This document shows, in pieces, positions 3,904 to 17,686 of a stretch of DNA of 64,000 nt (positions are counted from its first letter, which is position 1; every line of letters starts with the position of its first letter). Both the position numbers and the translations under genes were made by a program. Where the stretch lies: contig JBEKQU010000011.1 in assembly GCA_049519415.1 (NCBI GenBank), forward strand, positions 7,538 through 71,537, in the 5' to 3' direction. The notes under the pieces are model-generated. The model did not search any database. It was not told the origin of the DNA and worked only from the letters and a program-made list of their open reading frames with translations. Origin of the DNA: Spirochaetia bacterium (GTDB taxonomy: Bacteria > Spirochaetota > Spirochaetia > SZUA-6 > Fen-1364).

Positions 3904-4261
3904 GCACACACTCCTGCGCCTCAGCTGGCGCAATCCCAGCATACACCGCCGGGAGCCAAGTCATCGATCCGTCTGTGTACCTCGTCCTTGACCTGCTGTG
4001 GGCTTCCAAGCGGCAGGACCCACTGCTATCTACACCTCCGCCCCAGAACGTGAGGTCCCGGCGGAACTCCTTTTTCAGCCGGGGATAGGGTGATGTCCTC
4101 ACGCGCTGTGTGGTCACTCTTTAATCTGGCTTCGCATAAACGTACTGCGTCGTCATGCCGAGTGCAACCAGTAGAGACGGCGCTGCTTCGATAGGCACCG
4201 TTTTCGTTTCGGGCATTTTATTTTCGGGTATGTTGCAATTCCCTACAACGTAGGGACTTAT

Positions 4262-4304
4262 ATGGGCGATACTGGGATTGAACCAGTGACTTCTACCGTG
4301 TGAA
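4262..4304. repeat. Distal att repeat (partial tRNA-Val 3' segment)
   Basis: ATGGGCGATACTGGGATTGAACCAGTGACTTCTACCGTGTGAA is identical to 17614-17656. No 5' tRNA half is adjacent. Confidence 0.9.
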
Positions 4305-4432
4305 TGTACGACTCGGCAAATGCGCCTGTTTTCCATACTAATACTGACAGATACTGGAATAGCATAAAACAAAGTAATTCGCAAGGTTCCTCCTACTGAA
4401 AGATTTTGAGGAATACCCGCGTTGCCTGAAAG

Positions 4433-4453
4433 TTGCTCACACTTTTGCTCACA
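4433..4453. repeat. Tandem TTGCTCACA repeats (candidate integrase arm-type sites), distal end
   Basis: TTGCTCACA-ctt-TTGCTCACA has a 12-bp period. The same arrangement and orientation occur at 17533-17553. Confidence 0.6.
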
Positions 4454-4580
4454 CAAGAATGAGCTGCCAAGTCATGCTGGGGAAAAGTATGCGGCAAGGC
4501 TCCTGCAGATTGATTCCAGGGCCGTCTACGCGCGTCTGGTAGGCGTCCGGTTGGCACCCGCTCACGCTTGGGCACGTGAT

Positions 4581-4670
4581 GGGCCGTAGACGCGCCGCGG
4601 GGTTGACGTGAGTTGGCAAGAGGCGGGGGAATCACCGGGGGGATATAACGTCTCTATTGCATTCTGCGGG
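4581..4670 (-). repeat. Cargo-junction repeat, copy C (most diverged)
   Basis: Plus-strand boxes GGGCCGTAGA (4581-4590) and TTCTGCGGG (4662-4670) have the same order and similar spacing as copy B. The copy lies downstream of the caspase-ankyrin stop. Confidence 0.4.
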
Positions 4671-4810
4671 CGATAGTGCGCGAGGCCAGCGCCCCGTTTG
4701 AGCGGACGCTGAGAATGTCGGCGCGAGAGGCACGCCATTGCCAGCCGTGCATGGCGTTGCTACGGTTGAATCTGCGCGCAACCCTTATCGTGTCTCGGGG
4801 TTCCAGCCAG

Positions 4811-7006
4811 CTATTGAAGAGCCTCAGGGGTCTTTGTGAGGTCCGAGTCCTTTAGTTTTGGGTTGGCAAGAATATAGTCATACGCACTCTTACCTGACAT
4901 GTCACGTGCGGTCCTATCCGCACCGTTTGCAAGAAGCAGCTTAACAACTTCGGGATTAGTGTTTCCGCTTGCTGCTGCGAGCAAGGGAGTCATTCCGGCG
5001 AAATTTCGTTGGTTGATATTTGACCCTGAGGAAACGAGAATCTTGCATACCTCCGGGTTGTCGTTATGTAAAGCGGCTTGGATCAGAGGTGTTGATCCAT
5101 CAGATAGTTTATCGTTAACCGAGGCGCCGAGTGAAATAAGCAACCTAGTTACCTCAGGGTTCTTATTGCTATCTGCGGCCTCCAATAGGGCTGTCCACCC
5201 TTTATTGTCTTTTTCGTTTAACTGTGATCCATGAGACATTAGGAACTTTATGACATCCGGGTTTGGATTATGCGAGGCTGCAGCTTGTAATGCGGTTCCA
5301 CCAAACTGTGTCTTCTCGCTTATAGAGCTGCCGGATTCAATCAGAACCTGCAACACTTCTGGACTCTGATTTCCCCAGCAAGCCTCAAGAAAGGGTGTAT
5401 AGCCCTCGGTAGTGCGGTCCGATAAGCTTGCCCCAGCACTTAGCAAGAGGCGAAGTATTTCAGGGTTTTGATTGTTGAGGGCTGCTTCCAATATAGGCGT
5501 CCAACCGCCACCAATGCGATGTTCAACTTCTGCCCCCGCTTTTAACAAAAACGAGGTCACTTCGATCATAGGATTAAACGCAACGGCTTCAAATAGTGCC
5601 GTCCAACCATCTTTTTTAGCAGTGTTTACATTGGCTCCTGATTCCAGAAGAAATTTGATACTATCCGGATTACGATTTCCCCAAGCAGCTTCGATGATCG
5701 GAGTCCAGCCTTCGTTGTCCTGTTCGTTAATATTCGCGCCTGCCTTCAAGAGTATCTGCATTACATCTGCGTTATTTCTCATAGCTGCATAAATTAGTGC
5801 CGTCTTCCCAGAACTATCTCTAATCATAACCTTTGCCCCTGCAGAAAGTAGAAGGGCAACGATGTTAGCATCAGGATTGGAAGAAGCAGCGGACATTAGT
5901 GGCGTAACATCCGCAGGCGTTTGGGCATTGACGTCAGCTCCTGCCTCGATCAAAGAACGAACCACGTCTGCATGGTTCGTGAGCGCGGCCTCATGCAGTG
6001 CGGTATAGCCAGCTTTTTCGGGTTCGTCGACTTTTGCCCCGGCCGATAGAAGTGATTTAAGAACATTCACGTCATGGTTGAAAGCAGCAGCGAAAGCAAG
6101 GGCCGTAGCGCCAAACGTCTTATCTTTCGCGTCAAGGCTCAGGCCGCTTGACAACAGAGCGTTAACTTCTTGAACCGTTCCTGTTTTTAAGATTGCGACC
6201 TCTGCATCAGATAGTGTTGGCAAGGTTCTCGGTGGGACGACGACTGCTTTCTGGGTGGGCCCCGCTAATAGCGCTTCTCCAAAGTATTGGCTGTACATAG
6301 CAGGAACTTGCATGCCATTAGTCTCAGTCTGAACCCTCGCACCCGTTCGGTTAAACACATCTCTAATGTCCAGTCCTGGAGTCGTAAGATCCTTTAGAAG
6401 CTCCGATGTAAAGATTCCGTTTCGGCCTTGGCCATCTTGCGCAACGCTTCCTGCGCTTGTGGCAAAGACTACTATGCTACCAGGTGGTTGCCTATCTACA
6501 ACCGAAAGACCGCGCGTGCCCGAGCGCGCCCAAGAGAAGGGGTTGTCGCGGCAAGCATCAAGCACCACCACGTTCAGGGAGTTGTGAGCTTCCGCCAGCA
6601 CATCAAGCACCTCCTGCGCGGAAAGCGCCTTTGATCTGAGGAAGACCTCTACAGGAATATGAGCGTCAGTAGGTATCAGGTAGTTGATTCCATTAGATTG
6701 CACTCCGTGGCCAGCGTAAAAGAAAAACCCAATAGAATCTTTCGAGGTCGAAAGCCGGTTTCCCAGGCGCACGACAGCGTCCTCCATGGTTGCAAGATCA
6801 GCGTCTGCAAGACTATCGACCTGGAAGCCCAAACTTTTCAGCGCCTCCCCGATATCGTGAGCGTCATTAGTCGGGTTCTTGAGCTTGCTCAGCTCGATAT
6901 AGTTGCCGTTCCCAACGACAAGGGCGTAGCGGGCTGATTGTCCAAAAACGGGCGGCGTGAGACTTAGCACAGCGAGCAGAACGGTGATGAGTTTCGATTT
7001 CTTCAT
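4811..7006 (-). CDS. Secreted caspase (peptidase C14)-ankyrin repeat fusion protein
   Basis: An N-terminal signal peptide (MKKSKLITVLLAVLSLTPPVFG/Q) is present. The caspase p20-like domain has YAGHG (His100) and LDACRDNPF (Cys152). About 13 ankyrin repeats of the 34-residue variant (xNxNPEV..LL.AGA) follow. RBS AGGAG lies upstream of ATG 7006. Confidence 0.9.
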   Translation of the reverse strand: MKKSKLITVLLAVLSLTPPVFGQSARYALVVGNGNYIELSKLKNPTNDAHDIGEALKSLGFQVDSLADADLATMEDAVVRLGNRLSTSKDSIGFFFYAGHGVQSNGINYLIPTDAHIPVEVFLRSKALSAQEVLDVLAEAHNSLNVVVLDACRDNPFSWARSGTRGLSVVDRQPPGSIVVFATSAGSVAQDGQGRNGIFTSELLKDLTTPGLDIRDVFNRTGARVQTETNGMQVPAMYSQYFGEALLAGPTQKAVVVPPRTLPTLSDAEVAILKTGTVQEVNALLSSGLSLDAKDKTFGATALAFAAAFNHDVNVLKSLLSAGAKVDEPEKAGYTALHEAALTNHADVVRSLIEAGADVNAQTPADVTPLMSAASSNPDANIVALLLSAGAKVMIRDSSGKTALIYAAMRNNADVMQILLKAGANINEQDNEGWTPIIEAAWGNRNPDSIKFLLESGANVNTAKKDGWTALFEAVAFNPMIEVTSFLLKAGAEVEHRIGGGWTPILEAALNNQNPEILRLLLSAGASLSDRTTEGYTPFLEACWGNQSPEVLQVLIESGSSISEKTQFGGTALQAAASHNPNPDVIKFLMSHGSQLNEKDNKGWTALLEAADSNKNPEVTRLLISLGASVNDKLSDGSTPLIQAALHNDNPEVCKILVSSGSNINQRNFAGMTPLLAAASGNTNPEVVKLLLANGADRTARDMSGKSAYDYILANPKLKDSDLTKTPEALQ

Positions 7007-7026
7007 ACTCGTCTCCTCGTTTAAGC

Positions 7027-7054
7027 ATTATACAACGCCCCCTGAGCGAGGCAA
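7027..7054 (-). promoter_or_regulatory. Sigma70-like promoter of the caspase-ankyrin gene
   Basis: The minus strand reads TTGCCT-16 nt-TATAAT, about 20 nt upstream of the RBS and ATG. Confidence 0.55.
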
Positions 7055-7160
7055 GCAATGTTAGCGGCATGTCGTGTGTGTTCCCTTTTAAGCCACTTTT
7101 CCCGTGCGTAGAAGTCCCCGGCGATTTCTGAACCTCCCGGATTTTCCCCTAGGCGTGCGT

Positions 7161-7260
7161 AGAGGGCCGCAGACGAATCGGACGTGAAATGACATACGGC
7201 AGGAGCCCTCCGCGTTGAGCCTGCGTGGCTATGTTCTCGAAAAGGGGGGTGTTTCTGCCG
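7161..7260 (-). repeat. Cargo-junction repeat, copy A
   Basis: 7161-7184 matches 10007-10030 at 22 of 24 positions. Further shared blocks are CATACGGC, CGCGTTG and GTTCTC/GTTCTG. The copy lies downstream of the three-gene operon. Confidence 0.65.
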
Positions 7261-7499
7261 CAGTACGTGACCGCTCCGCGACGGACACGATGCGGGAGAG
7301 ACCGTCACACCGTCATAGTCTTGAATAAATCAAGCCGTGATCCCCAATCAAGAGGCAGCGCTCCTCGCTTCTTGGAGGTGCGGCCGATTACCGCTGAGCG
7401 CAGCATTCGCGCACTGCGTGTCTTCGTTCCCATGGAGCGCAAGCCCGCTCCCAAGCCGTAACCGCACGCTACTATCGAACCGGAAGGATTGAGCGGAAG

Positions 7500-7916
7500 C
7501 TATATTTTCAATTCGCTCCTCTTATAGAGATAGAAGCCATTTCCCTGGGTCACATAGGACAGATTAACAAGCTTGATGAGGACTTCATCGAAAGGCAGGT
7601 TCCCTTTGATCTTCTGTGCAAGCTCATTTACATACTCAATGAACTTACTAACAATCGCCTCATCAAGCTGTACTGTAAGATCGCCTGCTTTGATTGCTTG
7701 GATTCGCATATAGAAGGCTGCATACACTGAGCTAAGAATATGATGTAGATAGACCAGCTCTGGCGTTGTTTTTGCATTGAGTGCTCGATTGACCGCCCCG
7801 AATACCGCGCTGAAATAGAACAGCTTTTCATCAAAGGGGACATTTTCTCCAAGCTTGCTCAAAACGAAATCAAGATCGGGGTCGATGATTGTCCTAGCGT
7901 CACCAGACACGACCAT
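7500..7916 (-). CDS. Hypothetical protein, third gene of the toxin/XRE operon
   Basis: ATG 7916 is preceded by a strong RBS (GAGGAGGAAATGT) embedded in the 3' end of the XRE gene, giving a 17-nt overlap. No motif was recognised. The sequence looks helical. Confidence 0.65.
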   Translation of the reverse strand: MVVSGDARTIIDPDLDFVLSKLGENVPFDEKLFYFSAVFGAVNRALNAKTTPELVYLHHILSSVYAAFYMRIQAIKAGDLTVQLDEAIVSKFIEYVNELAQKIKGNLPFDEVLIKLVNLSYVTQGNGFYLYKRSELKI

Positions 7917-8385
7917 ACATTTCCTCCTCAACAACGCCTGATTGCGGCGGGAATAGCCCGGGGCTAGCGGTTCCTATACCAACCAAAGTGTTTGTCCCTA
8001 CAAGAGTCTGTCCACTGTATGCGGCTAACGTTCCTAGTTCATGCACGCTGCTTACGGCCGATGTAATTCGGATTCCCTCAGGCGCGCGAACACCATATGA
8101 AACAGCGCGCCGCGGCCTCATTCCAACAAAGAGCTCAAAATCAATAGCGTCCGCCACTCGGCAGAGCGTAAGCAAAGTCATGTTTGACTTGCCCTGCATG
8201 AGCTGGCTGACATATGCCTTGCTCACCCTAAGACGTTCTGAGAGTTGTTTCTTGGACAGGCTTAGTGCTTTCAGCCTATTGCTTACTTGAATCGCAACAT
8301 CGATTGCGAGAGCTTCAGCCTTGTACTCTGGAGTCTTCCGCGCCTGCGCTCCCGATTCACTCCACCATCTTTGCGCGTTAATCAT
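7900..8385 (-). CDS. XRE-family HTH protein (HigA-like antitoxin candidate)
   Basis: The HTH stretch is LSKKQLSERLRVSKAYVSQLMQGKSNMTLLTLCRVADAI. There is an ATGA overlap with the upstream toxin-like gene. Confidence 0.8.
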   Translation of the reverse strand: MINAQRWWSESGAQARKTPEYKAEALAIDVAIQVSNRLKALSLSKKQLSERLRVSKAYVSQLMQGKSNMTLLTLCRVADAIDFELFVGMRPRRAVSYGVRAPEGIRITSAVSSVHELGTLAAYSGQTLVGTNTLVGIGTASPGLFPPQSGVVEEEMYGRVW

Positions 8386-8792
8386 TCATCGCTCTCCACC
8401 CACTCAGGATTTGCGTCGAACCTCTGTTTTGCTTTTATTGCTCGCCTGTATTGAGCCTTCTCCACTAAAACTGTTTTTATGAAATGCGTAGCCATGAGCA
8501 GCCTTCTATGATTCCCATAGAAAAAGCACCCGATCCTATGTCTCCCCTTCTTTAGCTCGCAAAAGAACTCGTCGCCTTCTTTCCAACAATCCAACTGTTC
8601 GTCGTTCAGAGTTTCATAGCCTTGCGTAGAAATTATCTCTATGAGGTGCCTAAAACCTCTTGCTGCAACGGATGAGTCTCTTTGACTGAAGAAATCCAAC
8701 ACCTCGGATTTCTCACCCTTCTGTAAGACATAAACGTATGTCCGTGGACCCCTTTCAATTAGTATAGCACGCATTCTGACTGGTGTCAACAT
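8382..8792 (-). CDS. RelE/ParE-superfamily toxin, phage Gp49-like (HigB-like)
   Basis: The C-terminal pattern FCELKKGRHRIGCFFYGNHRRLLMATHFIK...YRRAIKAKQRF fits Gp49/DUF891-type toxins. The toxin-first gene order is typical of HigBA. The start could be 8774. Confidence 0.65.
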   Translation of the reverse strand: MLTPVRMRAILIERGPRTYVYVLQKGEKSEVLDFFSQRDSSVAARGFRHLIEIISTQGYETLNDEQLDCWKEGDEFFCELKKGRHRIGCFFYGNHRRLLMATHFIKTVLVEKAQYRRAIKAKQRFDANPEWVESDE

Positions 8793-8887
8793 TGGTTAAG
8801 TTATAGCTTTACTCACTACCTAAGACTCCATTAACTGCCTAATCCTAAGGCATAATGATCTTAAAATCAACAGAAAAAGCGGAAACC

Positions 8888-8926
8888 AGAAGCAAAAGGG
8901 CCTCCCGCAGAAAAGCATAGGGGGCC
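8888..8926 (-). terminator. Putative rho-independent terminator after the serine recombinase
   Basis: The minus strand reads GGCCCCC-13 nt loop-GGGAGGCC (7 bp with one bulge), followed by CUUUUGCUU. Confidence 0.4.
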
Positions 8927-9188
8927 TGAAAAAAGAACACCGGCGGCCAGGAACGCGGTGAGAGGTTGGTAGGGGCATCAACCCCCGGCGACCTAGCCCT
9001 CGGCGCTTCTCATGGTCGATCAGCTCGATAAGTTACAGCGCACGAGGGGGAGAGGGTGATCGGAACACGGGGGGTCCGAATCGGCCCACATGGGCGTGCA
9101 CCCTCGCGGTAACAGAAGGTCCCTCGGGCGGAGAGGGAGGGCTCGGCCTCCTGCCTCGGCGCGCCTTCGCCTGCCGCCGTCGCCGCTG

Positions 9189-9854
9189 TCAGGCCTGCGC
9201 CATCTTGAGAAGGCGCTGTACTTGCTTCGCCGTCCAGAGTCCACCGCGCCGGGCCCGCTGTCCGGTAGCGTTCAACTCGTCTGCTATGCGCTGCAACGTG
9301 TAACCTGCCTTGCGATAGTTCACGGCGTGCCTCATGCTGCCGTTCGCTGCCTTGACTGCCTTCTCGTGCTTGGCCGCTCGGCCTTTCGCCATCGCCTCGG
9401 GAGTCAGGTTCTGAGGGTTGCCCAGCTTCTTGCCGCGTGCCTTCGCCACCGCCAGGGCAACGCGCGTCCTGTCGCTGATTGCCTTCGCCTCGCCTTGAGC
9501 CACTGCCGCGAGGATGCCGACCGTCATTTCATTCGCCTCTGGCATGTCGGCCGCGATGAACCGCACCCGCTCATCCTGTAGGCGAGTGACAAAGGACGCC
9601 TTGCGAGCTAGCCGGTCCAGCTTGGCGATTACCAGGACCGCGCCGCCTGTCTTGCACTCTGCCAGCGCCGCCGTGAGCCCTGGTCTATCGTCGTGCCTGC
9701 CGCTCTCCACGTCCTTGTACTCCGCGACGATTCCCCACCCGCGAGACTTGCACAGGGATTCGACCGACACCCGCTGCGCGTCCAGGCCGAGCCCCGATGC
9801 ACCCTGGCGCTGCGTGGAAACCCTGTAGTACGCGATTGCCTTTTCTCTTTTCAT
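9189..9854 (-). CDS. Serine recombinase (resolvase/invertase family)
   Basis: The catalytic N-terminus is AYYRVSTQRQ. The resolvase core is VLVIAKLDRLAR. A C-terminal HTH (GYTLQRIADELN) is present. Confidence 0.9.
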   Translation of the reverse strand: MKREKAIAYYRVSTQRQGASGLGLDAQRVSVESLCKSRGWGIVAEYKDVESGRHDDRPGLTAALAECKTGGAVLVIAKLDRLARKASFVTRLQDERVRFIAADMPEANEMTVGILAAVAQGEAKAISDRTRVALAVAKARGKKLGNPQNLTPEAMAKGRAAKHEKAVKAANGSMRHAVNYRKAGYTLQRIADELNATGQRARRGGLWTAKQVQRLLKMAQA

Positions 9855-9864
9855 GTTCTGCCCT

Positions 9865-9910
9865 CACTCTTGACATACTTTATACCTTCGTTTAAATAAT
9901 GTCAAGAGTG
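9865..9910 (-). promoter_or_regulatory. Recombinase promoter embedded in a perfect 12-bp inverted repeat
   Basis: CACTCTTGACAT (9865-9876) and ATGTCAAGAGTG (9899-9910) flank a 22-bp AT-rich spacer. The minus strand reads TTGACA-17 nt-TAAAGT, then GAGGG and ATG 9854. Confidence 0.55.
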
Positions 9911-10006
9911 TTCCATATTTTTTCGGGAGTGTCTATTAACGGCAGAGTTCCCGAGCTCTCGTTCTGTGCTTAACATTAAAGGGTCTTTTCTCTTCGCCCC
10001 GAGAGC

Positions 10007-10120
10007 AGAGGGCCGTAGATGAATCGGACGAAAATCTCGTGCGGCATACGGCTTCTGCGTTGGACCTAACGCCTAGCCTGCAAAACGGTGCCCTGTTCTG
10101 CGGGAAGGCGGGTAGTGGCG
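10007..10120 (-). repeat. Cargo-junction repeat, copy B
   Basis: See copy A. Plus-strand boxes are GGGCCGTAGA (10010-10019) and TTCTGCGGG (10096-10104). The copy lies downstream of the ankyrin gene stop and upstream of the recombinase promoter. Confidence 0.65.
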
Positions 10121-10206
10121 GGAAACGTGCTTAATGGTAGCCCCAGGATGAAAACGCCGGGGTCTGCCCTATGTGGAGGGGTTCCCGCTTGTGGAATCCT
10201 TCTGGC

Positions 10207-12603
10207 CTACTTTGATGCTTCTTCGAGTTGCTGATAGGCGTCAGTGCCCTTTAGCGCCGCATTGTTCAGAGCATAATCGAAGGCTGTCTTGCCCTGGAGG
10301 TCTTTAGCTTTCCCGTCCGCGCCGGCTTTCAGCAGCATGGTGATCACTGCGGGGTTCTGATTGCGCACGGCTGCGAGCATGAGCGGAGTGGCGCCATATT
10401 TGGGATCTCGCACGCTGAGGTCCGCACCCGCCAAAAGAAGCGCCGCAATGACCTTAGGGTTTTGGTTGCCCATGGCCGCGAGCATTAGCGCAGTCGCGCC
10501 GTGCGTATCCCGCGCGTTAACGTCTGAGCCGCCCCCCACGAGCGCCGTGATCACTTCGGGGATTTGGTTGAACGCCGCAGCATTCATCAGCGCGGTCATG
10601 CCGTCGTTGTTCTGTGCTTCAAAGTCCGCACCGGCTTTCAGAAGCGCGGTGACTACCGCAGGGTTCTTGTTGCTCGAGGCAGCGAGCATCAGCGGGGTAT
10701 TGCCATACTTGTCCTGCGCCTTGAGGTCCGCCCCTGCCCTAAGGAGTATGGCGATAACCTCGGAGTTCTGGTTCTTGCTTGCGGCGTGCATCAGCGCGGT
10801 CCCACCGTTATTATCCCGCGCCTTGAGGTCCGCTCCGGCCTTAAGGAGCGCGGCAACCAACTCGGAGTTTTGGTTTGTCTCGGCTGCGTACATAAGCGCT
10901 GTCATGCCGTTGCTGTCCCGTGCCTTGGGGTCCGCCCCTGCCTTAAGAAGCGTGATAACCACTTCGGGGTTCTTGTTCGTATCAACTGCGTACATAAGCG
11001 CGCTCAAGCCGTTGTTGTCCTCCGCCTTGAGGTTGGCCCCGGCCCTCAGGAGCGTAGTAATCACGTCGGGATTCTGATTGTTTCCCGCGGCTGCTAAAAG
11101 CGGTGTCCCGCCGTTCTTGTCATGAGCGTTCACATCCGCGCCGGCCTCAAGGAGCATGGTCACCACCATGAGATTCTGGTTATAGCTTGCAGCATGCATC
11201 AGCACGGTCCCGCCGTTATTGTCCCGAGCGTTTAGGTCAGCGCCAGCATTTAGGAGTATCGTGATCAACTCGGGGTTCGGATTGTCGGCTGCGGCAGACA
11301 TAAGCGCGGTCAAGCCTATTTTGTCGCGTGCCTTTATGTCTGCCCCAGCCCTTAAAAGTGCATTGACCACATCAACCTTTTGGTTTTTCCCAGCGGCGTA
11401 CATTAGCGCACTCAAGCCATTCTTGTCCTGCGCCTGGAGGTCCGCTCCTGCCTTAATCAGCGCCGAGATCACTTCCGCTTGAGGGTTGCTCATTGCAGCT
11501 TGCATCAGTGCAGTCATTCCGTCTTTATCCCGCCCCTCGATATTTGCTCCAGCCTGTACGAGTATGGCGATCACTGCAGGGTTCGGGTTGTTCGCGGCGG
11601 CAGCCATTAATGCGGTAGAGCCGTCGTTATTCCGAGCGTTGGGATCTGCCCCTGCCTTAAGAAAAGCGTCGACCACCTCCGAACTCTTGTTTGTTTGGGC
11701 TGCATACATCAGCGCAGTTAGACCATGCTTGTCCTGGGCCTTTAGGTTTGCCCCAGCCCCAAGGAGCGTGGTAATAACTTCTGAGCTTTGGTTTGTCTGG
11801 GCTGCGTACATAAGTGCAGTCGCACCATCCTTGTCACTAGCGTTGACATCTGCACCAGCCGTCAGGAGTATGGTGATTACTTCGGGGTTCTGGTTAACCA
11901 GAGCTGCAACCATCAACGCGTTCATGCCGTCCTTGCTCTGAGCCTTGAGGTCTGCGCCGGCCTTCAGAAGGGTGGTGATTACCGCTGGGTTCTGGTTCCA
12001 TCCGGCGGCCACCATCAACGGCGTTAAGTTGTCTTTATTCCGCGCCTTGAGGTTTGCCCCGGCCCTAAGGAGCGCGGTAATCACTTCTGAGTTTGGGTTT
12101 GTCTGGGCTGCGGACATAAGTGGGGTCTGGCCGAACTTGTCCCGGCTCTCAAGATTTGCGCCAGCATTTAAGAGCGCGGCAATCACGTCGGGACTCGAAT
12201 TGTTCGCGGCAGCATGATCTAACGGGGTCGCGCCGTTCTTGTCTTGGCTCTCAATGCTTGCCCCGGCGTTCAGGAGCGTAGTGATCACGTCGGGATTCTT
12301 GGAGTACCTAGCGGCCCACGATAGCACTTGCAGTCCGAAACTGTAGTCCTTGGCATAAAGGTCCGCTCCAGAATTTAGAAGCGTGGTGATCACTGCGGGG
12401 TTCGGGTTGAACCCGGCAGCAGTCATCAGCGGGGTAGAACCATCCTTTTTCCGAGCATTCACGTCTGCGCCCTGGTTGACAGCCGCTTGTATTTGCGCGG
12501 GTGTCCCGGTCTTTACCAGCTCAAAGAAGTCTGTCGTCTGCGCAAACGCCGAAGCTGCCAAAAGGACCGCAAGGACTACAGCAACCATGATTCGCTTTCT
12601 CAC
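10207..12603 (-). CDS. Secreted ankyrin-repeat protein (about 22 repeats)
   Basis: A signal peptide (VAVVLAVLLAASAFA/Q) is present. About 22 tandem 34-residue ankyrin repeats (G.TALM.AA..N.NPEVI..LL.AGAD) follow. The C-terminal cap is homologous to that of the caspase fusion. GTG start with GAGGG RBS. Confidence 0.9.
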   Translation of the reverse strand: MRKRIMVAVVLAVLLAASAFAQTTDFFELVKTGTPAQIQAAVNQGADVNARKKDGSTPLMTAAGFNPNPAVITTLLNSGADLYAKDYSFGLQVLSWAARYSKNPDVITTLLNAGASIESQDKNGATPLDHAAANNSSPDVIAALLNAGANLESRDKFGQTPLMSAAQTNPNSEVITALLRAGANLKARNKDNLTPLMVAAGWNQNPAVITTLLKAGADLKAQSKDGMNALMVAALVNQNPEVITILLTAGADVNASDKDGATALMYAAQTNQSSEVITTLLGAGANLKAQDKHGLTALMYAAQTNKSSEVVDAFLKAGADPNARNNDGSTALMAAAANNPNPAVIAILVQAGANIEGRDKDGMTALMQAAMSNPQAEVISALIKAGADLQAQDKNGLSALMYAAGKNQKVDVVNALLRAGADIKARDKIGLTALMSAAADNPNPELITILLNAGADLNARDNNGGTVLMHAASYNQNLMVVTMLLEAGADVNAHDKNGGTPLLAAAGNNQNPDVITTLLRAGANLKAEDNNGLSALMYAVDTNKNPEVVITLLKAGADPKARDSNGMTALMYAAETNQNSELVAALLKAGADLKARDNNGGTALMHAASKNQNSEVIAILLRAGADLKAQDKYGNTPLMLAASSNKNPAVVTALLKAGADFEAQNNDGMTALMNAAAFNQIPEVITALVGGGSDVNARDTHGATALMLAAMGNQNPKVIAALLLAGADLSVRDPKYGATPLMLAAVRNQNPAVITMLLKAGADGKAKDLQGKTAFDYALNNAALKGTDAYQQLEEASK

Positions 12604-12617
12604 TTTGTGCCCTCGCT

Positions 12618-12646
12618 ATTTTACCGCCTCACGTCCACGCTGTCAC
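12618..12646 (-). promoter_or_regulatory. Sigma70-like promoter of the ankyrin gene
   Basis: The minus strand reads GTGACA-17 nt-TAAAAT immediately upstream of the RBS and GTG 12603. Confidence 0.45.
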
Positions 12647-12708
12647 GTGTCGCGCCGTCTCGCTTGCGGGGCATAGTGCAACGTTCGGGGGCCTATCGTA
12701 CTTTGACA

Positions 12709-13350
12709 TCAGTCGCAACGCCTACGGCTGGGGATATATGTCACGCTGCCCGGCATGAGGGGCCAGGGGAAAAGCCGTTCTCCCGGCTTTCGGCAATGGT
12801 GACAGACGGGTCGATGCATGCCAGCCGCGTTTACATCGAAAAGAAGGCTATGGATGTCGCCTCCGACATACTGCCGACAGCGCGAGCAGGAAGCACCGTT
12901 CGGACCGCTCTTGATCTCGATGTCGGGAATGTCCCGCGAGCTGTCTCGCACGCTTCCGAGGGGCAAGTCCGAGCGATGGGTACCCAGAGAATCGGCCGAT
13001 TCCGTATGACTGCCCTGGTCCACGTCGCCAGCGACGCCGATTCCCTCGTTTCCCTGGTCCGTAGAGGGCTCCGGGTCTGTGGTAGTCTGGTAGGGCTCCG
13101 GGTGGTTACGGTGCTCTGGCGGCGCTCGCCGCTTCCGTTTCTGGACGATCTTTTCAAGTTTGGCCGCGAGAGGGCCAACAATCCAGCGCCCGACCGTGGT
13201 CCTGGGTATGCCAGTCGAAAAGGCGATCTGTCGGATGCTGGCGCCATCAGCGTAGTAGGCGAGGATGTCTCTCTCCTGCTCAGCCGTGAGGCGTAGTATA
13301 CTCGCTTTGTGCTTTTTTCTCCGTGCGCGAGTGCCATTTTCTCGGTTCAT
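12709..13350 (-). CDS. HTH protein with C-terminal Cys4 zinc-ribbon-like motif
   Basis: The resolvase/IS630-type HTH is LTAEQERDILAYYADGASIRQIAFSTGIPRTTVGRWI. The C-terminus carries CSRC...CHHC. The start is uncertain (13350 ATG or an upstream TTG). Confidence 0.6.
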   Translation of the reverse strand: MNRENGTRARRKKHKASILRLTAEQERDILAYYADGASIRQIAFSTGIPRTTVGRWIVGPLAAKLEKIVQKRKRRAPPEHRNHPEPYQTTTDPEPSTDQGNEGIGVAGDVDQGSHTESADSLGTHRSDLPLGSVRDSSRDIPDIEIKSGPNGASCSRCRQYVGGDIHSLLFDVNAAGMHRPVCHHCRKPGERLFPWPLMPGSVTYIPSRRRCD

Positions 13351-13372
13351 CTTTGGCCCATCCGGCCCATTC

Positions 13373-13897
13373 TCAGCTTTCCTCCGGGGCCTCAAGGTCT
13401 ACCCCGAAGCGATCGCAGTAGTCTGCAATCCTGTTAAATGACCAACCTTGAAGGCAGAGATTCAGTATCCCCCGCTGCTGGGGAGTGAAACGGGTGTCTT
13501 CCTCATCTTCCAGCGCATCCTGGAAGGCTTTTAGGAAGATTAGTTCCTGCATTCGGTCGTAGAGTGCTAGTGCTTTAGGACCACTGAGGGCTGCTTGTTC
13601 TCTGTCTGCGGTTTTAATTTGGTCTAGATATCTCATTGTCCACTGTTCACGGCGAGTTTGCTTGTACCGCTTTCCGAAGTCGTACAAGTTCTCGCTCGCC
13701 CATCGGCGCATAGTCCGCAGTCCGGGAGCGCCCGGGATCTTGGCGACGTCCACGAGTGAAAGGTCGTATCTAGAACAGAGATCGAGCACCAGGTCCATGT
13801 TTGCCCGGATACGTTTTTCTGCCCGCAGAGAGTAACTCTCCCAGGAGATACGGCCAACAATGCGCTCTGGTACCGGGTCGGGTCTACTGTCCGGCAT
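13373..13897 (-). CDS. HTH protein resembling phage small terminase subunits (tentative)
   Basis: The pattern LSLVDVAKIPGAPGLRTMRRWASENLYDFGKRYKQTRREQ resembles the HTH plus RW..E..F...Y..AR motif of many TerS proteins. ATG 13897 has a GAGGGAG RBS. Assignment is by eye only. Confidence 0.55.
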   Translation of the reverse strand: MPDSRPDPVPERIVGRISWESYSLRAEKRIRANMDLVLDLCSRYDLSLVDVAKIPGAPGLRTMRRWASENLYDFGKRYKQTRREQWTMRYLDQIKTADREQAALSGPKALALYDRMQELIFLKAFQDALEDEEDTRFTPQQRGILNLCLQGWSFNRIADYCDRFGVDLEAPEES

Positions 13898-13953
13898 GTT
13901 TTGCTCCCTCGCTTTTCTCGCCTTCATGCGGTCCGAGTCAGTAGCCGCTTCGC

Positions 13954-14274
13954 CTATGCCATCACCTTTCCGTGTGTACGGATAATGCGATACGCATCGC
14001 CTCTTGGAAAGCAGAGACAATTCCGGCAATCCGGAAGCGCCTCATAGATGACCTCGTAGGATAGTTCGTAGGCTTCTGAGGTGCGGAGTTCAGGGTTTTC
14101 GGCCTCCCATCCGACGAGCCCAAGAAGGACCGGCTTCAGCTCATTTACCCAAAAGTTGTTCGCGCAGAAGCTCGGATTCGACTTGTCATCACGAATCGAG
14201 CGGGCCCGGTAGTACAATGCCCGCAATCGCGGCTCCTTCTGGCATAGTTCGTTGAATGTGTCCATCTTTTTCAT
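13954..14274 (-). CDS. Hypothetical protein (106 aa)
   Basis: ATG with GAGAGGGA RBS, in the same strand and operon context as the island core. No motif was recognised. Confidence 0.55.
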   Translation of the reverse strand: MKKMDTFNELCQKEPRLRALYYRARSIRDDKSNPSFCANNFWVNELKPVLLGLVGWEAENPELRTSEAYELSYEVIYEALPDCRNCLCFPRGDAYRIIRTHGKVMA

Positions 14275-14326
14275 AGCCTGTATCCCTCTCGAAGTACGGG
14301 TAACAACGGTAACAGTAGTAACGGCG

Positions 14327-15367
14327 TCATCCTGTATAGCCGTTATTCGTTATCGCGTTACCGTTGTTATCGCTGTTTCGGTACTTCCCTGCGTTCTCCA
14401 GGACCAAACCAGCGTTTTTCATCTTGAAGAGAAGCTGCCGAACCCTGTCCGATGTGCTGTCGAGGTGTAGGGCAATCTCCTTCGGCGCAAGCGCACCTTC
14501 CTTGCTCAATAGGTCTACGATTTGCCGCCGCTCCTGACTCAGCATGACATCGCGAGCAGATCCTTCGCACTTCCAGCCTCCGGGAAGTGAAAAAGATAGT
14601 GCAAGCTCCTGCTCCTCAATATCGCGGCCAGTGGCCGCCAACACAGCTTCTTGCGTGCCGCGGGCCCTCTTGAGTCCCAAGACTGTGTCCGTGGTGGAGC
14701 TGTAAGCCGTCGAGCCGATAATGCCGTCCACGAAGTCCTCTCGCGCGGCCTTGCCATAATGATGAATGAGGAGGAATGCAGTCTTGAATTTCGATGAGAG
14801 TTGTTGAAAGCCTGCGAGGTAGTCGCCGACCACGCCGTAATCATTGTGGTCTGCTTCGGTAGGGAAAATGCGCGCCACAACGTCTACAACACAGAGCCGC
14901 ACAGTTCCGACCCCGATGTATTCAAGAAGGTCACCTATGGCGTCCAGTGCTTCGCGGCCTTTCGCCCATTCCGTGAAGAAACGCAATTTCGCACTCCATA
15001 ACGAACCGAGTAGGTCGGATCGGCTTTTCAGTCTACGGAGAGAGTCTTCAAGGGCCAAATAGAGCACTTCCCCTCGTTCGATCTCGCGGCCAAACAGCGG
15101 CGTCCCTTCCGATATCGCATTGGCAATCTGTAATGCAAGCCAACTCTTCCCGATCTTAGGACGGCCGGCGAGGATTGCTACGCCTCCCTCGATGAGAAGT
15201 CCGGGTACGAGCCATTTGGGAGGGTCGAAGTTCATCATCTCCAGATCGGCCGCCGTGGTCATCTTGGCGTAGATGTGCGATAGTCGATCCGAATTGACAG
15301 AAGCCTGCCTATGATTCGCCTCAATAGTGGTCGCTACATTTCTTTCGTGCCAGTCAGCGGAGCTCAT
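14327..15367 (-). CDS. RecA-like AAA ATPase (AAA_25 / RepA-type replicative helicase-like) with C-terminal winged-helix
   Basis: Walker A is GRPKIGKS. The LYLALED and CVVDV motifs are present. The C-terminus (LSKEGALAPKEIALHL...RVRQLLFKM) looks like a wHTH. ATG 15367 overlaps the xis-like stop as ATGA. Confidence 0.75.
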   Translation of the reverse strand: MSSADWHERNVATTIEANHRQASVNSDRLSHIYAKMTTAADLEMMNFDPPKWLVPGLLIEGGVAILAGRPKIGKSWLALQIANAISEGTPLFGREIERGEVLYLALEDSLRRLKSRSDLLGSLWSAKLRFFTEWAKGREALDAIGDLLEYIGVGTVRLCVVDVVARIFPTEADHNDYGVVGDYLAGFQQLSSKFKTAFLLIHHYGKAAREDFVDGIIGSTAYSSTTDTVLGLKRARGTQEAVLAATGRDIEEQELALSFSLPGGWKCEGSARDVMLSQERRQIVDLLSKEGALAPKEIALHLDSTSDRVRQLLFKMKNAGLVLENAGKYRNSDNNGNAITNNGYTG

Positions 15368-15570
15368 GCCACTCCTGCCTTTGCCTTCGGACTGGTCAGC
15401 GGCGCGACGCGACGGGCGTTCCGCCATTCTATCAACTCATCCCGGTCAAACACGACGCGCCTTCCGAGCTTGTAGAACGGTATCGAGCGCGTTAGGCATA
15501 GCTTTCGCATTGTTGGCGGCTTCAGCGATAGGAGCTCGGCGGCCTGGCGAATATCAAGGGATACACTCAT
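15364..15570 (-). CDS. Excisionase/AlpA-like HTH protein
   Basis: 68 aa. The stretch AAELLSLKPPTMRKLCLTRSIPFYKLGRRVVFDRDELIEW is typical of MerR-like excisionase (HTH_17) proteins. Confidence 0.75.
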   Translation of the reverse strand: MSVSLDIRQAAELLSLKPPTMRKLCLTRSIPFYKLGRRVVFDRDELIEWRNARRVAPLTSPKAKAGVA

Positions 15571-15623
15571 ACCCTACTAATACGCGGCTCTATCAGAGTC
15601 CGCGCACTTTCGGTGATATATTG

Positions 15624-16352
15624 CTACTTTTTCTTTCGGAAATTCTGGGCCGGCGGGACCCGGGCCAGCCAGCCAACCTTGACCCAATCCCTGAGGGTGC
15701 TCTCTGATATTTCGGTCATGCGCGCAACACGGGACAGCACCGCTGTCTTTGTAAGCTTGACGGTCCCGTCATTCTGTTCCCTCGCTCCCCTGAAGGCCAG
15801 CATTTCCTTTATGACTTGGCGGCGATTACCCTTCGCCCATTCTTCGGCCGCTGTGTTAATCCCGTTTACGGCTTCCTGGGCCTTTTTTACTTTCGGGTCG
15901 TCCGCTTTCGATCCATAGCTGCGCTTTCGCCTCTTCGCCTCCCGTGCTTTTTTCAGCGTTCCTAACTGCTCCTTGCCTCTTTCTATCAGGGGAGCATGGG
16001 CCCGTTTCCGCAGCCGTTCATCCTGTGAAATATCCCTACATCGAGAAGCCGCGTCTTCAGCGCTGAGAAGCTCAGCAGAGGGGGCCTCGTTGGAGCACCC
16101 CCCGCTCACGAAGTCAGCGGCCTCCTTGGATAGTTGCTTAGGGCTCGATTCGGTGAACAACTCGCTGAGCCGATTTCCAGGGAGCGGTCTGTCCGGATCG
16201 TTCTCGCGCTCGACCTCTGCGGCCTCGGCTTTCAACTCTTCATCGCTCTTTGAGGATTTCCATTCTCCCGTTGCGGCCCGCCGTTCACGTTCAGCGATCC
16301 TGCGCTGTATTTCTCGGGCCTTGTCGTCAGGGAGTCCAGTGGTGTCCTTCAT
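15624..16352 (-). CDS. Hypothetical charged protein with C-terminal HTH
   Basis: ATG 16352 overlaps the integrase stop as ATGA. The protein is Lys/Glu/Arg-rich. The C-terminus (LSRVARMTEISESTLRDWVK) is HTH-like. Confidence 0.6.
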   Translation of the reverse strand: MKDTTGLPDDKAREIQRRIAERERRAATGEWKSSKSDEELKAEAAEVERENDPDRPLPGNRLSELFTESSPKQLSKEAADFVSGGCSNEAPSAELLSAEDAASRCRDISQDERLRKRAHAPLIERGKEQLGTLKKAREAKRRKRSYGSKADDPKVKKAQEAVNGINTAAEEWAKGNRRQVIKEMLAFRGAREQNDGTVKLTKTAVLSRVARMTEISESTLRDWVKVGWLARVPPAQNFRKKK

Positions 16353-17497
16353 ATACGGCCTTCCGCCACGGCGAGCGCATCCTTGAAGTGCTCGTCGCCG
16401 AATGCAGTGTATCGGTCCGTCATGGCGGGGCTCTTGTGCCCGGTCAGCGCCCGGATTTTCGAGTCCTCGACCCCGCCGGAGCGCAGCATCGTGTTGAACC
16501 AGCGCCGCCACGAATGCACAACGATTCCACGGCGTTTACGTTCCGCGTCTGTGATCTTCATGGTCGATAGCGCATCATGAAGTCCTTTGGCGATGAAGCT
16601 CTGCGCCATCGGAGTGTGCGCTGTTCGTCCGTAGAATACCAAGCTTTCGGGATCATCCTTGAAGCGAGATTCCTCGATGATCTCCCGGAGGTGAAGGGCA
16701 GTCTTTGCCGGCAGTGGCACGACGCGAGCGCTATCCCATTTCGGAGCCTTCAGGCCTGCCTTGCGTTCCCATGCGTGGACAACGGCAAGGTGGTTGCTCT
16801 GAACGTCTCCGACTTGAAGGGCTTGAAGCTCGCCGAGTCGGAGCCCAGTCGAAGCAAGTACAAGGTGCGCCGTGAACATCCGCTTGTCGCCCGCCCATAA
16901 CTTCCCGATTGTCTTTTCCGCGAAGAGCTTCTTAACTTCGGCGTTCGTGAGGATGCCCCGGTCTGCCGGCTTCGCTTTGAACATCCCGACTGCCTCCGCC
17001 GGATTGCGCGGGATCAACTCCGCGTCGCGGGCCTCACGGAACATGAGCTTCAATACGGTGAGGATGCTGTTGACGGTTCCTGCCGCGAGCCCATCGTCAA
17101 GGAGCTTCATCCGCCATTTTTCGACTGCCGGGCGGGTAATCTCCGAGAGCTTCATCTTGCCGAACGTGGGGAGGATGTAAGTCTCGATGTACTTCCGTCT
17201 GCCCTCGGCGTAGGTCCGTCCTATGCTCTTGCCCTCGGCGAGCCTCCGTTTGATGTAGTCGCACTTTCCCCAGATAAAGAAGTTGGCCGAGAATTGCTTC
17301 AGAGTGATATTGCCGGCAGAGGATGCAGGCACCTTGCCGCTTTCGATCTGAGCGAGCGCCCAGGCCTCGGCTGCGGCCCTGCTCGTCTGCTCCGACGACA
17401 CGGCCGTCATTCGCTTGCCCTGGTAGTCGCGGAACATGACGTAAAAGATTACCCCGTGCTTCATCTTCCGCTTGAACATCGTGTAGGGCCTATGCAT
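16349..17497 (-). CDS. int: Tyrosine integrase (phage integrase family) with N-terminal arm-binding-type domain
   Basis: The C-terminal catalytic region is HSWRRWFNT...LTGHKSPAMTDRYT. The N-terminus (GVIFYVMFRDYQGKR) resembles arm-binding domains. GGGAGG RBS. The gene is adjacent to the tRNA. Confidence 0.9.
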   Translation of the reverse strand: MHRPYTMFKRKMKHGVIFYVMFRDYQGKRMTAVSSEQTSRAAAEAWALAQIESGKVPASSAGNITLKQFSANFFIWGKCDYIKRRLAEGKSIGRTYAEGRRKYIETYILPTFGKMKLSEITRPAVEKWRMKLLDDGLAAGTVNSILTVLKLMFREARDAELIPRNPAEAVGMFKAKPADRGILTNAEVKKLFAEKTIGKLWAGDKRMFTAHLVLASTGLRLGELQALQVGDVQSNHLAVVHAWERKAGLKAPKWDSARVVPLPAKTALHLREIIEESRFKDDPESLVFYGRTAHTPMAQSFIAKGLHDALSTMKITDAERKRRGIVVHSWRRWFNTMLRSGGVEDSKIRALTGHKSPAMTDRYTAFGDEHFKDALAVAEGRI

Positions 17498-17532
17498 GGC
17501 TACCTCCCTGAAATCCTTGAAACAGAGGGGAT

Positions 17533-17553
17533 TTGCTCACAGATTTGCTCACA
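17533..17553. repeat. Tandem TTGCTCACA repeats (candidate integrase arm-type sites), int-proximal end
   Basis: TTGCTCACA-gat-TTGCTCACA lies 60 bp inside the att core, with the same period and orientation as 4433-4453. Confidence 0.6.
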
Positions 17554-17613
17554 CGGGGTTTTGGCGAATAGTTGAAAAGTCATGTAATTCATTATAGACA
17601 AAGGAAAAGATAG

Positions 17614-17656
17614 ATGGGCGATACTGGGATTGAACCAGTGACTTCTACCGTGTGAA
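17614..17656. repeat. Proximal att repeat (within the intact tRNA-Val)
   Basis: Identical to 4262-4304. It covers the tRNA from the 3' anticodon-stem strand to the discriminator base, plus 1 nt. Confidence 0.9.
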
Positions 17657-17686
17657 GGTAGCACTCTGCCGCTGAGTTAATCGCCC
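17615..17686 (-). tRNA. tRNA-Val (anticodon CAC)
   Basis: A 72-nt cloverleaf folds by hand. Acceptor is GGGCGAT/ATCGCCC and D stem is ACTC/GAGT. Anticodon stem CTACC/GGTAG carries loop TTCACAC. T stem ACTGG/CCAGT carries loop TTCAATC. CCA is not encoded. Confidence 0.9.

Follow-up and report, generated by a model that had tools for sequence, protein, structure and literature searches.

The res sites of Tn3 and gamma-delta comprise three subsites, those of the Sin/beta type (res or six) run over 86–90 bp with a site I, a bend site and a site II, and the hix and gix sites of DNA invertases are 26-bp dyads adjoining the invertase gene. The res site of Sin is 86 bp long and that of Tn3/gamma-delta 114 bp (PMC2428073). 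A resolvase gene, its site and a toxin-antitoxin pair standing together is a known arrangement in Tn3-family transposons, whose mosaics break at res site I (PMC7157771). Here we analyse a short intergenic repeat next to a small serine recombinase gene in a 64,000-nt stretch of the genome of a Spirochaetia bacterium (contig JBEKQU010000011.1; the whole stretch is hereafter called the window). The repeat consists of a 21-nt box (GGGCCGYAGAYGAATCGGACG) and a weakly conserved tail of 50–100 nt that includes a second block (CYCCGCGTTGRRYCT). We tentatively read the box, with a confidence somewhat short of even, as the DNA recognition or recombination site of the plasmid-type serine recombinase clade represented by the adjacent gene, with copies A and B bracketing the recombinase and a toxin-antitoxin-like module. 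The copies, the recombinase and its promoter are as follows.

7143..7269, plus strand: copy A (profile E-value 2e-29; local alignment with B; 77% over 88 nt against copy b of L016, a related island)
9990..10124, plus strand: copy B (profile E-value 1e-31; block search; boxes at the same position upstream of recombinase homologues)
4580..4598, plus strand: copy C, box only (TGGGCCGTAGACGCGCCGC; matrix score 16.4; remainder not alignable)
9189..9854, minus strand: small serine recombinase, 221 amino acids (aa), full length (Pfam PF00239, 6.6e-27)
9865..9910, minus strand: recombinase promoter, TTGACA-17-TAAAGT, within a perfect 12-bp inverted repeat (CACTCTTGACAT...ATGTCAAGAGTG)

The repeat is real. 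An earlier note on this DNA had reported a 24-nt block common to A and B; this block (AGAGGGCCGYAGAYGAATCGGACG, at 7161-7184 and 10007-10030) has no other occurrence in the window with up to three mismatches (expected 0.00). The best local alignment of the two copies (7161-7217 against 10007-10062) scores 42, compared with 17.2 ± 2.1 for shuffled sequences (maximum 25), and a four-copy profile aligns to 7143-7269 and 9990-10124 and to nothing else in the window. The box occupies 7164-7184 in A (GGGCCGCAGACGAATCGGACG) and 10010-10030 in B (GGGCCGTAGATGAATCGGACG). Beyond it the resemblance that the note had extended over further blocks is weak: the tails of A and B, the former containing CATACGGCAGGAGCCCTCCGCGTTGAGCC, are 52% identical. 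The second block lies 37–42 nt past the GAATC of the box, and in the L016 copies YGAATCKG is common to block and box, a resemblance too slight to establish a repeated motif.

The third copy stands as a box only. We scanned both strands (128,000 positions) with a position matrix trained solely on boxes from other metagenome loci, and the three best positions in the window were B (21.6), A (20.4) and C (16.4, at 4580), the next best scoring 12.8. All three lie on one strand and in intergenic gaps of the island described below. A score of 16.4 is attained by random 64-kb sequence in 13% of simulations, so that C is not significant window-wide, and C as a whole, which the note had called a more diverged copy, aligns with A or B at chance level (19–20 against 17 ± 2.4; four-copy profile E-value 4); a second short match, TTCTGCGGG, lies at 4661-4669. 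Copy C is credible only because it is on the same strand and in the single intergenic gap where a third copy is expected, and it is plausibly a degenerate, box-only copy. The placement described in the note, some 90–240 nt downstream of the last gene of each cargo unit, was borne out, with gaps from stop codon to copy end of 87 nt for B (stop at 10207), 240 nt for A (7500) and 141 nt for C (4811).

Other candidates were rejected. A fourth box at 12718-12727 (minus strand, at the end of a helix-turn-helix gene) is a 10-mer match outside the top matrix scores, and a further partial copy at about 9068-9100, downstream of the recombinase gene and resembling the box tail of contig L043, was not significant by BLAST. 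Coding potential across the copies was discarded since neither the reading frames nor the stops agree; an open reading frame (ORF), that of a zinc-ribbon protein, runs through L016a alone. A separate repeat family, D, was observed at 4488..4537 (plus strand), 80–84% identical to L016 1328-1377 and 2059-2102 (E-values 5e-8 and 2e-7), where its two copies are direct and flank a small ORF (1497-2039). The D repeat has the submotifs CGTAGA..GAATC in common with the A/B box in reverse orientation, to which it may be distantly related, and its similarity to the 3' half of tRNA-Val is borderline (p ~0.03).

Copies outside the window, which the note had proposed to look for, exist. We scanned public genome, metagenome and viral contig collections with the box pattern. 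One of seven matches in genome contigs was real (L005, from a Spirochaetia metagenome-assembled genome of the SPRUCE peat site), as were 4 of the 22 in metagenome contigs (L014, L016, L019 and L022); viral contigs gave one chance-like match only. All five real matches represent one other island, of which a 13.2-kb contig gives the best view.

Metagenome contig Ga0187870_1003077, 1-13217: L016, the related island, from other peat metagenomes

Among its proteins, L016 shares with the window island only a tyrosine integrase (43% aa identity), ankyrin genes and a zinc-ribbon gene fragment. It contains two copies of the element, a and b, which are inverted, 9.3 kb apart and have 25 identical bases. 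The box is selectively conserved: it is 90–100% identical in all six pairwise comparisons among A, B, L016a and L016b, whereas the 50 columns after it are 46–60% identical, except between A and L016b (80%). The box, and not the whole 100 nt, is therefore the part that is maintained. In the 71 alignment columns of box and proximal tail, the identity of A is 85% with L016b and 64% with B. Because A is nearer to a copy in another island than to its neighbour, a recent local duplication, to which the note had thought the similarity might reduce, is ruled out as the origin of A and B.

The recombinase has an N-terminal resolvase catalytic domain and a C-terminal helix-turn-helix (HTH). It has more than 6,600 homologues of about 225 aa, and their lengths (~220–235 aa) rule out a truncated large serine recombinase. 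Its best solved relatives are the Gin/Hin invertases and the gamma-delta/Tn3 resolvase. Proteins about 50% identical to it, annotated only as 'recombinase family protein', occur on plasmids of Methylobacterium, Hymenobacter and Deinococcus, in the first two near parA or rep genes.

The box is linked to this recombinase clade. In the window, 155 nt separate the recombinase start codon (9854) from the edge of the B box, which lies upstream on the strand opposite to the gene. We compared contigs with the closest relatives of the enzyme (58–90% identity). Together with the window they give seven distinct upstream regions, and six of these have the core GCCGTAGRCG at 150–250 nt before the gene (the window, L037, L039/L040, L041/L042, L043 and L044); the seventh, L038, lacks it. 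Contig L135, whose recombinase is 58% identical, has a box variant with a 1-nt insertion. The core is absent from all 83 upstream regions of homologues that are 42–55% identical (chance expectation ~0.002 per region), and 80 viral-contig loci with recombinases in the same identity range have no element. The box-to-ATG distance is 153 nt in L039, against 155 nt in the window, with intervening DNA that cannot be aligned; promoter aside, the upstream regions of the homologues show no alignment to that of the window. The inverted repeat of the promoter and its spacer (AAACGAAGGTATAAAGTATGT) are conserved upstream of the 80–90% identical homologues (L037-L040) and probably form an autoregulatory operator; no second copy of this palindrome that could act as a partner site was found in the window. 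We also observed that L016 2555-2600 is 89% identical over 46 nt to L135 9869-9914, a stretch just upstream of the recombinase promoter in L135, which is a 75-kb plasmid-like or integrative-and-conjugative-element-like contig with MobA/MobL, ParA and an integrase.

In the window, the copies are restricted to intergenic DNA of the island. The carrier and its genes are the following.

4259..17686, minus strand: carrier island, 13.4 kb, in tRNA-Val(CAC), with att repeats and tyrosine integrase
17615-17686, minus strand: tRNA-Val(CAC), insertion target of the island
4259-4317 and 17611-17669: att direct repeat, 59 nt, equal to the 3' part of the tRNA, marking both island ends
16349-17497, minus strand: tyrosine integrase gene, adjoining tRNA-Val
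12709-13395, minus strand: HTH and zinc-ribbon gene (weak Pfam HTH matches; aligns with L041 372-1154 and L043 335-922)
10207..12603, minus strand: ankyrin-repeat cargo gene, upstream of B (Pfam Ank families)
7500..8792, minus strand: three overlapping genes (136 aa, 161-aa XRE-type HTH, 144 aa) in the interval from recombinase to A (Pfam HTH_3)
4811..7006, minus strand: caspase-ankyrin cargo gene, between A and C (Pfam Peptidase_C14 and Ank)

All island genes are on the minus strand. From the integrase, they run through regulatory and replication genes (including an AAA_25 protein), the HTH-zinc-ribbon gene, the ankyrin gene, the recombinase and the three-gene unit to the caspase-ankyrin gene. 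A promoter scan gave each unit a sigma-70-like promoter of its own, at 8789-8761 for the three-gene operon and at 7054-7027 for the caspase-ankyrin gene. The proteins of the operon have weak matches to HigA/HipB-type antitoxins, and it looks like a putative toxin-antitoxin-like maintenance operon. G+C content is 45–50% in the three-gene unit and the caspase gene against 64–66% in the recombinase gene. Peat and wetland metagenomes are the source of the sequencing runs that contain the island. Immediately inside each end of the island (4433-4454 and 17533-17554) we observed a tandem TTGCTCACA motif, identical at 20 of 22 positions (E-value 5e-5), which fits candidate arm-type integrase sites.

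In L039 and L041-L043, a homologue of the HTH(-zinc-ribbon) gene of the window stands upstream of the box region. A public gene call places a 166-aa ORF on the opposite strand of the window gene (12830-13340); homology with L041, L042 and L043 favours the minus-strand reading. HTH-zinc-ribbon gene, box region and recombinase are contiguous in these relatives, whereas the window has the 2.4-kb ankyrin gene and a promoter of that gene in between (10207-12708). The ankyrin gene thus separates neighbours that adjoin elsewhere, which suggests that it was inserted between the HTH-zinc-ribbon gene and the box and recombinase.

Of the explanations raised in the earlier note, recombination sites used by the serine recombinase are the best supported, in an indirect way, through the conservation of the box and its presence in 6 of 7 close against 0 of 83 more distant upstream regions; the recombinant molecule and the dyad crossover site did not materialise. 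This explanation fits best because the box is near-invariant, confined to islands and linked at a fixed distance to one recombinase clade, and because the enzyme is of the plasmid-resolvase type and accompanied by a toxin-antitoxin-like operon. We infer that the recombinase binds the box and that recombination occurs there. B would then be the recombinase's own site, about 155 nt upstream of its gene, and A a second site in direct orientation, the two bracketing a 2.85-kb maintenance module made up of the recombinase and the toxin-antitoxin-like operon. The predicted reaction, of the resolvase type, would excise the module at A and B as a one-site circle. With its two sites on separate molecules, it would resolve multimers of an excised, replicating island or exchange cargo modules between islands, and inverted sites, as in L016, could lead to inversion of the intervening segment.

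One contig bears on the last of these predictions. L022, from a different sample, consists of L016 2812-2889, the 25-nt core and then L016 from 12216 down to 9184, and its junction is exactly the inversion join expected of the two inverted L016 copies. Softer signs of rearrangement at the box may be seen in L041 and L044, which are identical on both sides of a 12-nt against 27-nt replacement at the left edge of the box, and in box a of L016, which directly abuts a truncated zinc-ribbon gene fragment. Apparent breaks in run X16 proved to be coverage gaps, and look-ups of the exact Abi_2 and BrkB proteins for alternative L016 arrangements returned only the known contigs.

Several results weigh against recombination at the box. 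The L022 junction depends on 78 nt at the end of its contig and was not reproduced in the contigs of 12 runs, where only the other arrangement was present, so that L022 may be a rare form or an assembly chimera. Deletion or circle joints between A and B, which the earlier note had suggested seeking in metagenomic data, were absent from the Logan contigs of 8 runs at 3–10x depth, a depth at which, with contigs only, rare recombinant forms would be missed. The independently assembled contigs of these runs, and all contigs with the recombinase, ankyrin or caspase protein, keep the window order; two res sites in direct repeat around the enzyme's own gene would be expected to be unstable, yet the order is fixed in all samples examined. 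The orientation of the box relative to the recombinase gene varies between sub-lineages, towards or away from it. No internal inverted or direct sub-repeat is common to the four copies. Nor do they contain a crossover subsite made of two ~12-bp inverted half-sites around a central dinucleotide, and the only dyad of the box, GNCCG-N9-CGGNC, is weak and falls short of known crossover sites in length. Near the gene, the 12-bp promoter palindrome, whose sequence is unlike the box, is the strongest candidate for a binding site, and the 13 kb of L016 contain two boxes and no serine recombinase gene. We do not file the element as a res site because a search for a dyad crossover subsite gave none, no recombination product was seen and L016 has boxes without a recombinase gene.

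A different role for the box must be taken seriously, although we consider it less likely than a recombinase site: it may be bound by another protein, above all the HTH-zinc-ribbon protein, or by a host factor, as an operator, an iteron or a pac-like site in regulation, replication or packaging. Its shortness and asymmetry would suit such a role, as would GTAGRC-like submotifs spaced about 10–18 nt apart in A, L016b, L041 and L039. The conserved order of HTH(-zinc-ribbon) gene, box region and recombinase in L039-L044 points the same way, as do the zinc-ribbon fragment abutting box a of L016, the position of A and B, each ~100–107 nt upstream of a -35 hexamer, and the boxes of L016 that occur without a recombinase gene. 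However, L037 combines box and recombinase with a large serine recombinase gene upstream in place of the HTH gene, and neither A nor L016b has an HTH-zinc-ribbon gene nearby. The orientation of the box to nearby promoters is also inconstant, L016b facing a promoter on its other side. Relatives of the HTH-zinc-ribbon protein were not found in viral contigs.

We regard as doubtful a wider form of recombination at the box, in which it would serve the small serine recombinase as a crossover site for the shuffling of modules, each cargo unit ending in a box. The units would be the ankyrin gene, the maintenance module and the caspase-ankyrin gene, in tRNA-integrated islands of peat spirochaetes, and the recombinase, acting in cis or in trans from another island or plasmid, would excise, invert or swap them. 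Such a system would be integron- or shufflon-like, but with resolvase-type chemistry and double-stranded, sequence-conserved sites. Its basis is two solid copies per island and one doubtful junction. We examined the copies by the criterion for attC sites (R''/L''-L'/R' boxes, with RYYYAAC ... GTTRRRY at the two ends); an end-to-end palindrome of this kind is absent from them, and the island integrase scored 27.7 bits in the integron integrase test, against a cut-off of 265.

It is improbable that the copies are inert relics of past module exchange, without present function. The earlier note's idea of footprints of serial insertions holds as far as the copies stand at module boundaries, where blocks of differing G+C content meet (two low-G+C modules against the 64–66% of the recombinase gene). 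Decay of the tails, the reduction of C to a box, the piece of recombinase upstream region kept at L016 2555-2600 without a recombinase gene, and the lack of recombinants in the contigs examined would all be expected of relics. Neutral decay, however, does not produce a 21-nt box at 90–100% identity in six pairs beside a tail near 50%. The closer relationship of A to a copy in another island than to B likewise speaks against inert remnants, as does the retention of the box upstream of recombinases about 60% identical, amid non-coding DNA that cannot be aligned.

We think it very unlikely that the copies are secondary or arm-type sites of a tyrosine recombinase, be it the integrase of the island or a Xer-type enzyme like the second integrase of L016, with modules stacked and shuffled by tyrosine-recombinase chemistry. 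Related tyrosine integrases are encoded in both islands with full elements, a second, Xer-like one lies between the inverted copies of L016, and the distances inward from the distal att repeat are 264 nt to C and 316 nt to L016b. Yet the box is unlike the tRNA-Val att core, the tandem TTGCTCACA motif at both island ends suits arm-type sites better, and A and B are 3–6 kb from either att site. Furthermore, L041 (7.4 kb) and other contigs of the recombinase clade carry the box with no tyrosine integrase in view. A tRNA-derived att remnant was rejected: comparison of A, B, C, L016a and L016b with tRNA-Val gave p = 0.19–0.97.

The earlier note had also offered a structured 3' untranslated region or terminator, and a GCCGUA/UACGGC stem in which one substitution turns a U-A pair into U-G. 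That change is literally present; the stem did not hold up on folding. For A, B, L016a and L016b, fold z-scores were +1.5, -2.8, +1.8 and 0.0 on the plus strand and +0.7, -2.0, +1.6 and +0.1 on the minus strand, so that only B folds better than shuffles and the others no better or worse. Joint folding of the four copies with RNAalifold gave a modest 13-pair stem on the plus strand with a few two-sided changes; the covariation terms, -0.31 and +0.19 kcal/mol, were close to zero for only four sequences. A structured RNA, whether it belongs to the coding strand as a 3' untranslated region or terminator or to the other strand as a small RNA, is hardly credible despite the B hairpin and this stem, as neither gathering nor relaxed thresholds give an Rfam match, the coding strand shows no intrinsic terminator and the copies no common stable fold, and conservation lies in primary sequence and not in pairing. 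Curated RNA and repeat families gave no match to the box, and a literature search for its sequence returned chance primer matches only.

The related island showed other features of its own. The tyrosine recombinases of L016 are at 1-760 and 6169-6999 (the second, Xer-like, inside the segment bounded by the inverted copies), and the contig also encodes a D5-type primase (7615-9153), two ankyrin genes, whose orientation relative to the integrase is opposite to that in the window, and PilZ, DUF2569 and Abi_2 genes. At its far end a partial tRNA 3' end can be read from the sequence (12557-12612), where ARAGORN calls no tRNA. Further non-coding direct repeats stand beside cargo genes at 3017-3283/4388-4654 (73%, 271 nt) and 3297-3347/6116-6166 (82%, 51 nt). 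L005 2900-3000 (equal to L016 ~12050-12150), in the interval from copy b to Abi_2, has a near-consensus promoter (TTGACA-17-TATACT) followed by a hairpin and a U run, which could be a candidate small RNA or leader attenuator. In L005, a 56-nt direct repeat of a tRNA-like fragment (161-216 and 2442-2497) flanks a gene for a BrkB and cNMP-binding membrane protein, which suggests that this gene is likewise on a small inserted unit.

Were the box the site of the recombinase, resolvase- or invertase-type sites bracketing cargo modules inside a tyrosine-integrase island would be a new use of sites of a known kind. Mobility would then operate at two levels, with the tyrosine integrase moving the whole island at tRNA-Val and the resolvase-type enzyme cutting or exchanging internal modules. 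The exchangeable modules would include secreted ankyrin and caspase-like proteins and a toxin-antitoxin-like unit, a concrete mechanism for the mosaic structure of small islands in uncultured bacteria of soil and peat. A DNA site would also be defined for a clade of ~225-aa serine recombinases with more than 6,600 relatives, none of which we found characterised, and a 21-nt site with a 221-aa enzyme might serve as a tool. Should the box be an operator or a relic, the finding would be an ordinary one.

Among known systems, the element resembles repetitive extragenic palindromic (REP) sequences and miniature inverted-repeat transposable elements as a short, GC-rich, non-coding intergenic repeat. 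Unlike them, it was found only in mobile-element DNA, with none in the other 50 kb of the window, and has neither a REP-typical palindromic stem nor terminal inverted repeats. As in integron cassettes (attC) and composite islands of the staphylococcal cassette chromosome (SCC) type, accessory units each end in a common site, in one orientation, within a fixed-site island. Differences are the lack of an integron integrase and of an attC-type imperfect palindrome, conservation of sequence instead of fold, a promoter for each unit, a small resolvase-type recombinase in place of a large serine recombinase and only two solid copies. Invertase systems (Hin/hix, Gin/gix and Mpi of Bacteroides) offer another comparison. 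Their recombinases are of the same size class, and Gin and Hin are among the best solved relatives of the enzyme. The inverted L016 copies with 25 identical bases and the one contig with an inverted junction also recall them. Unlike the hix and gix pairs, those copies are 9.3 kb apart with no serine recombinase gene in view, the inversion is unreproduced, and the window copies are direct.

The element was also compared with res sites. The box departs from them in being asymmetric, without 12-bp inverted half-sites around a central dinucleotide. Two direct copies flank the enzyme's own gene in a chromosomal island with a tyrosine integrase but without a transposase, orientation to the gene varies among relatives, and contigs yielded no resolution product. 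Yet like a res site, the element is ~70–125 nt long, non-coding and just upstream of a small serine recombinase gene, with a spacer between its two conserved blocks. It has a toxin-antitoxin-like pair for a neighbour, as in many Tn3-family transposons, sequence mosaics break at the element, and the nearest annotated relatives of the enzyme are plasmid-borne.

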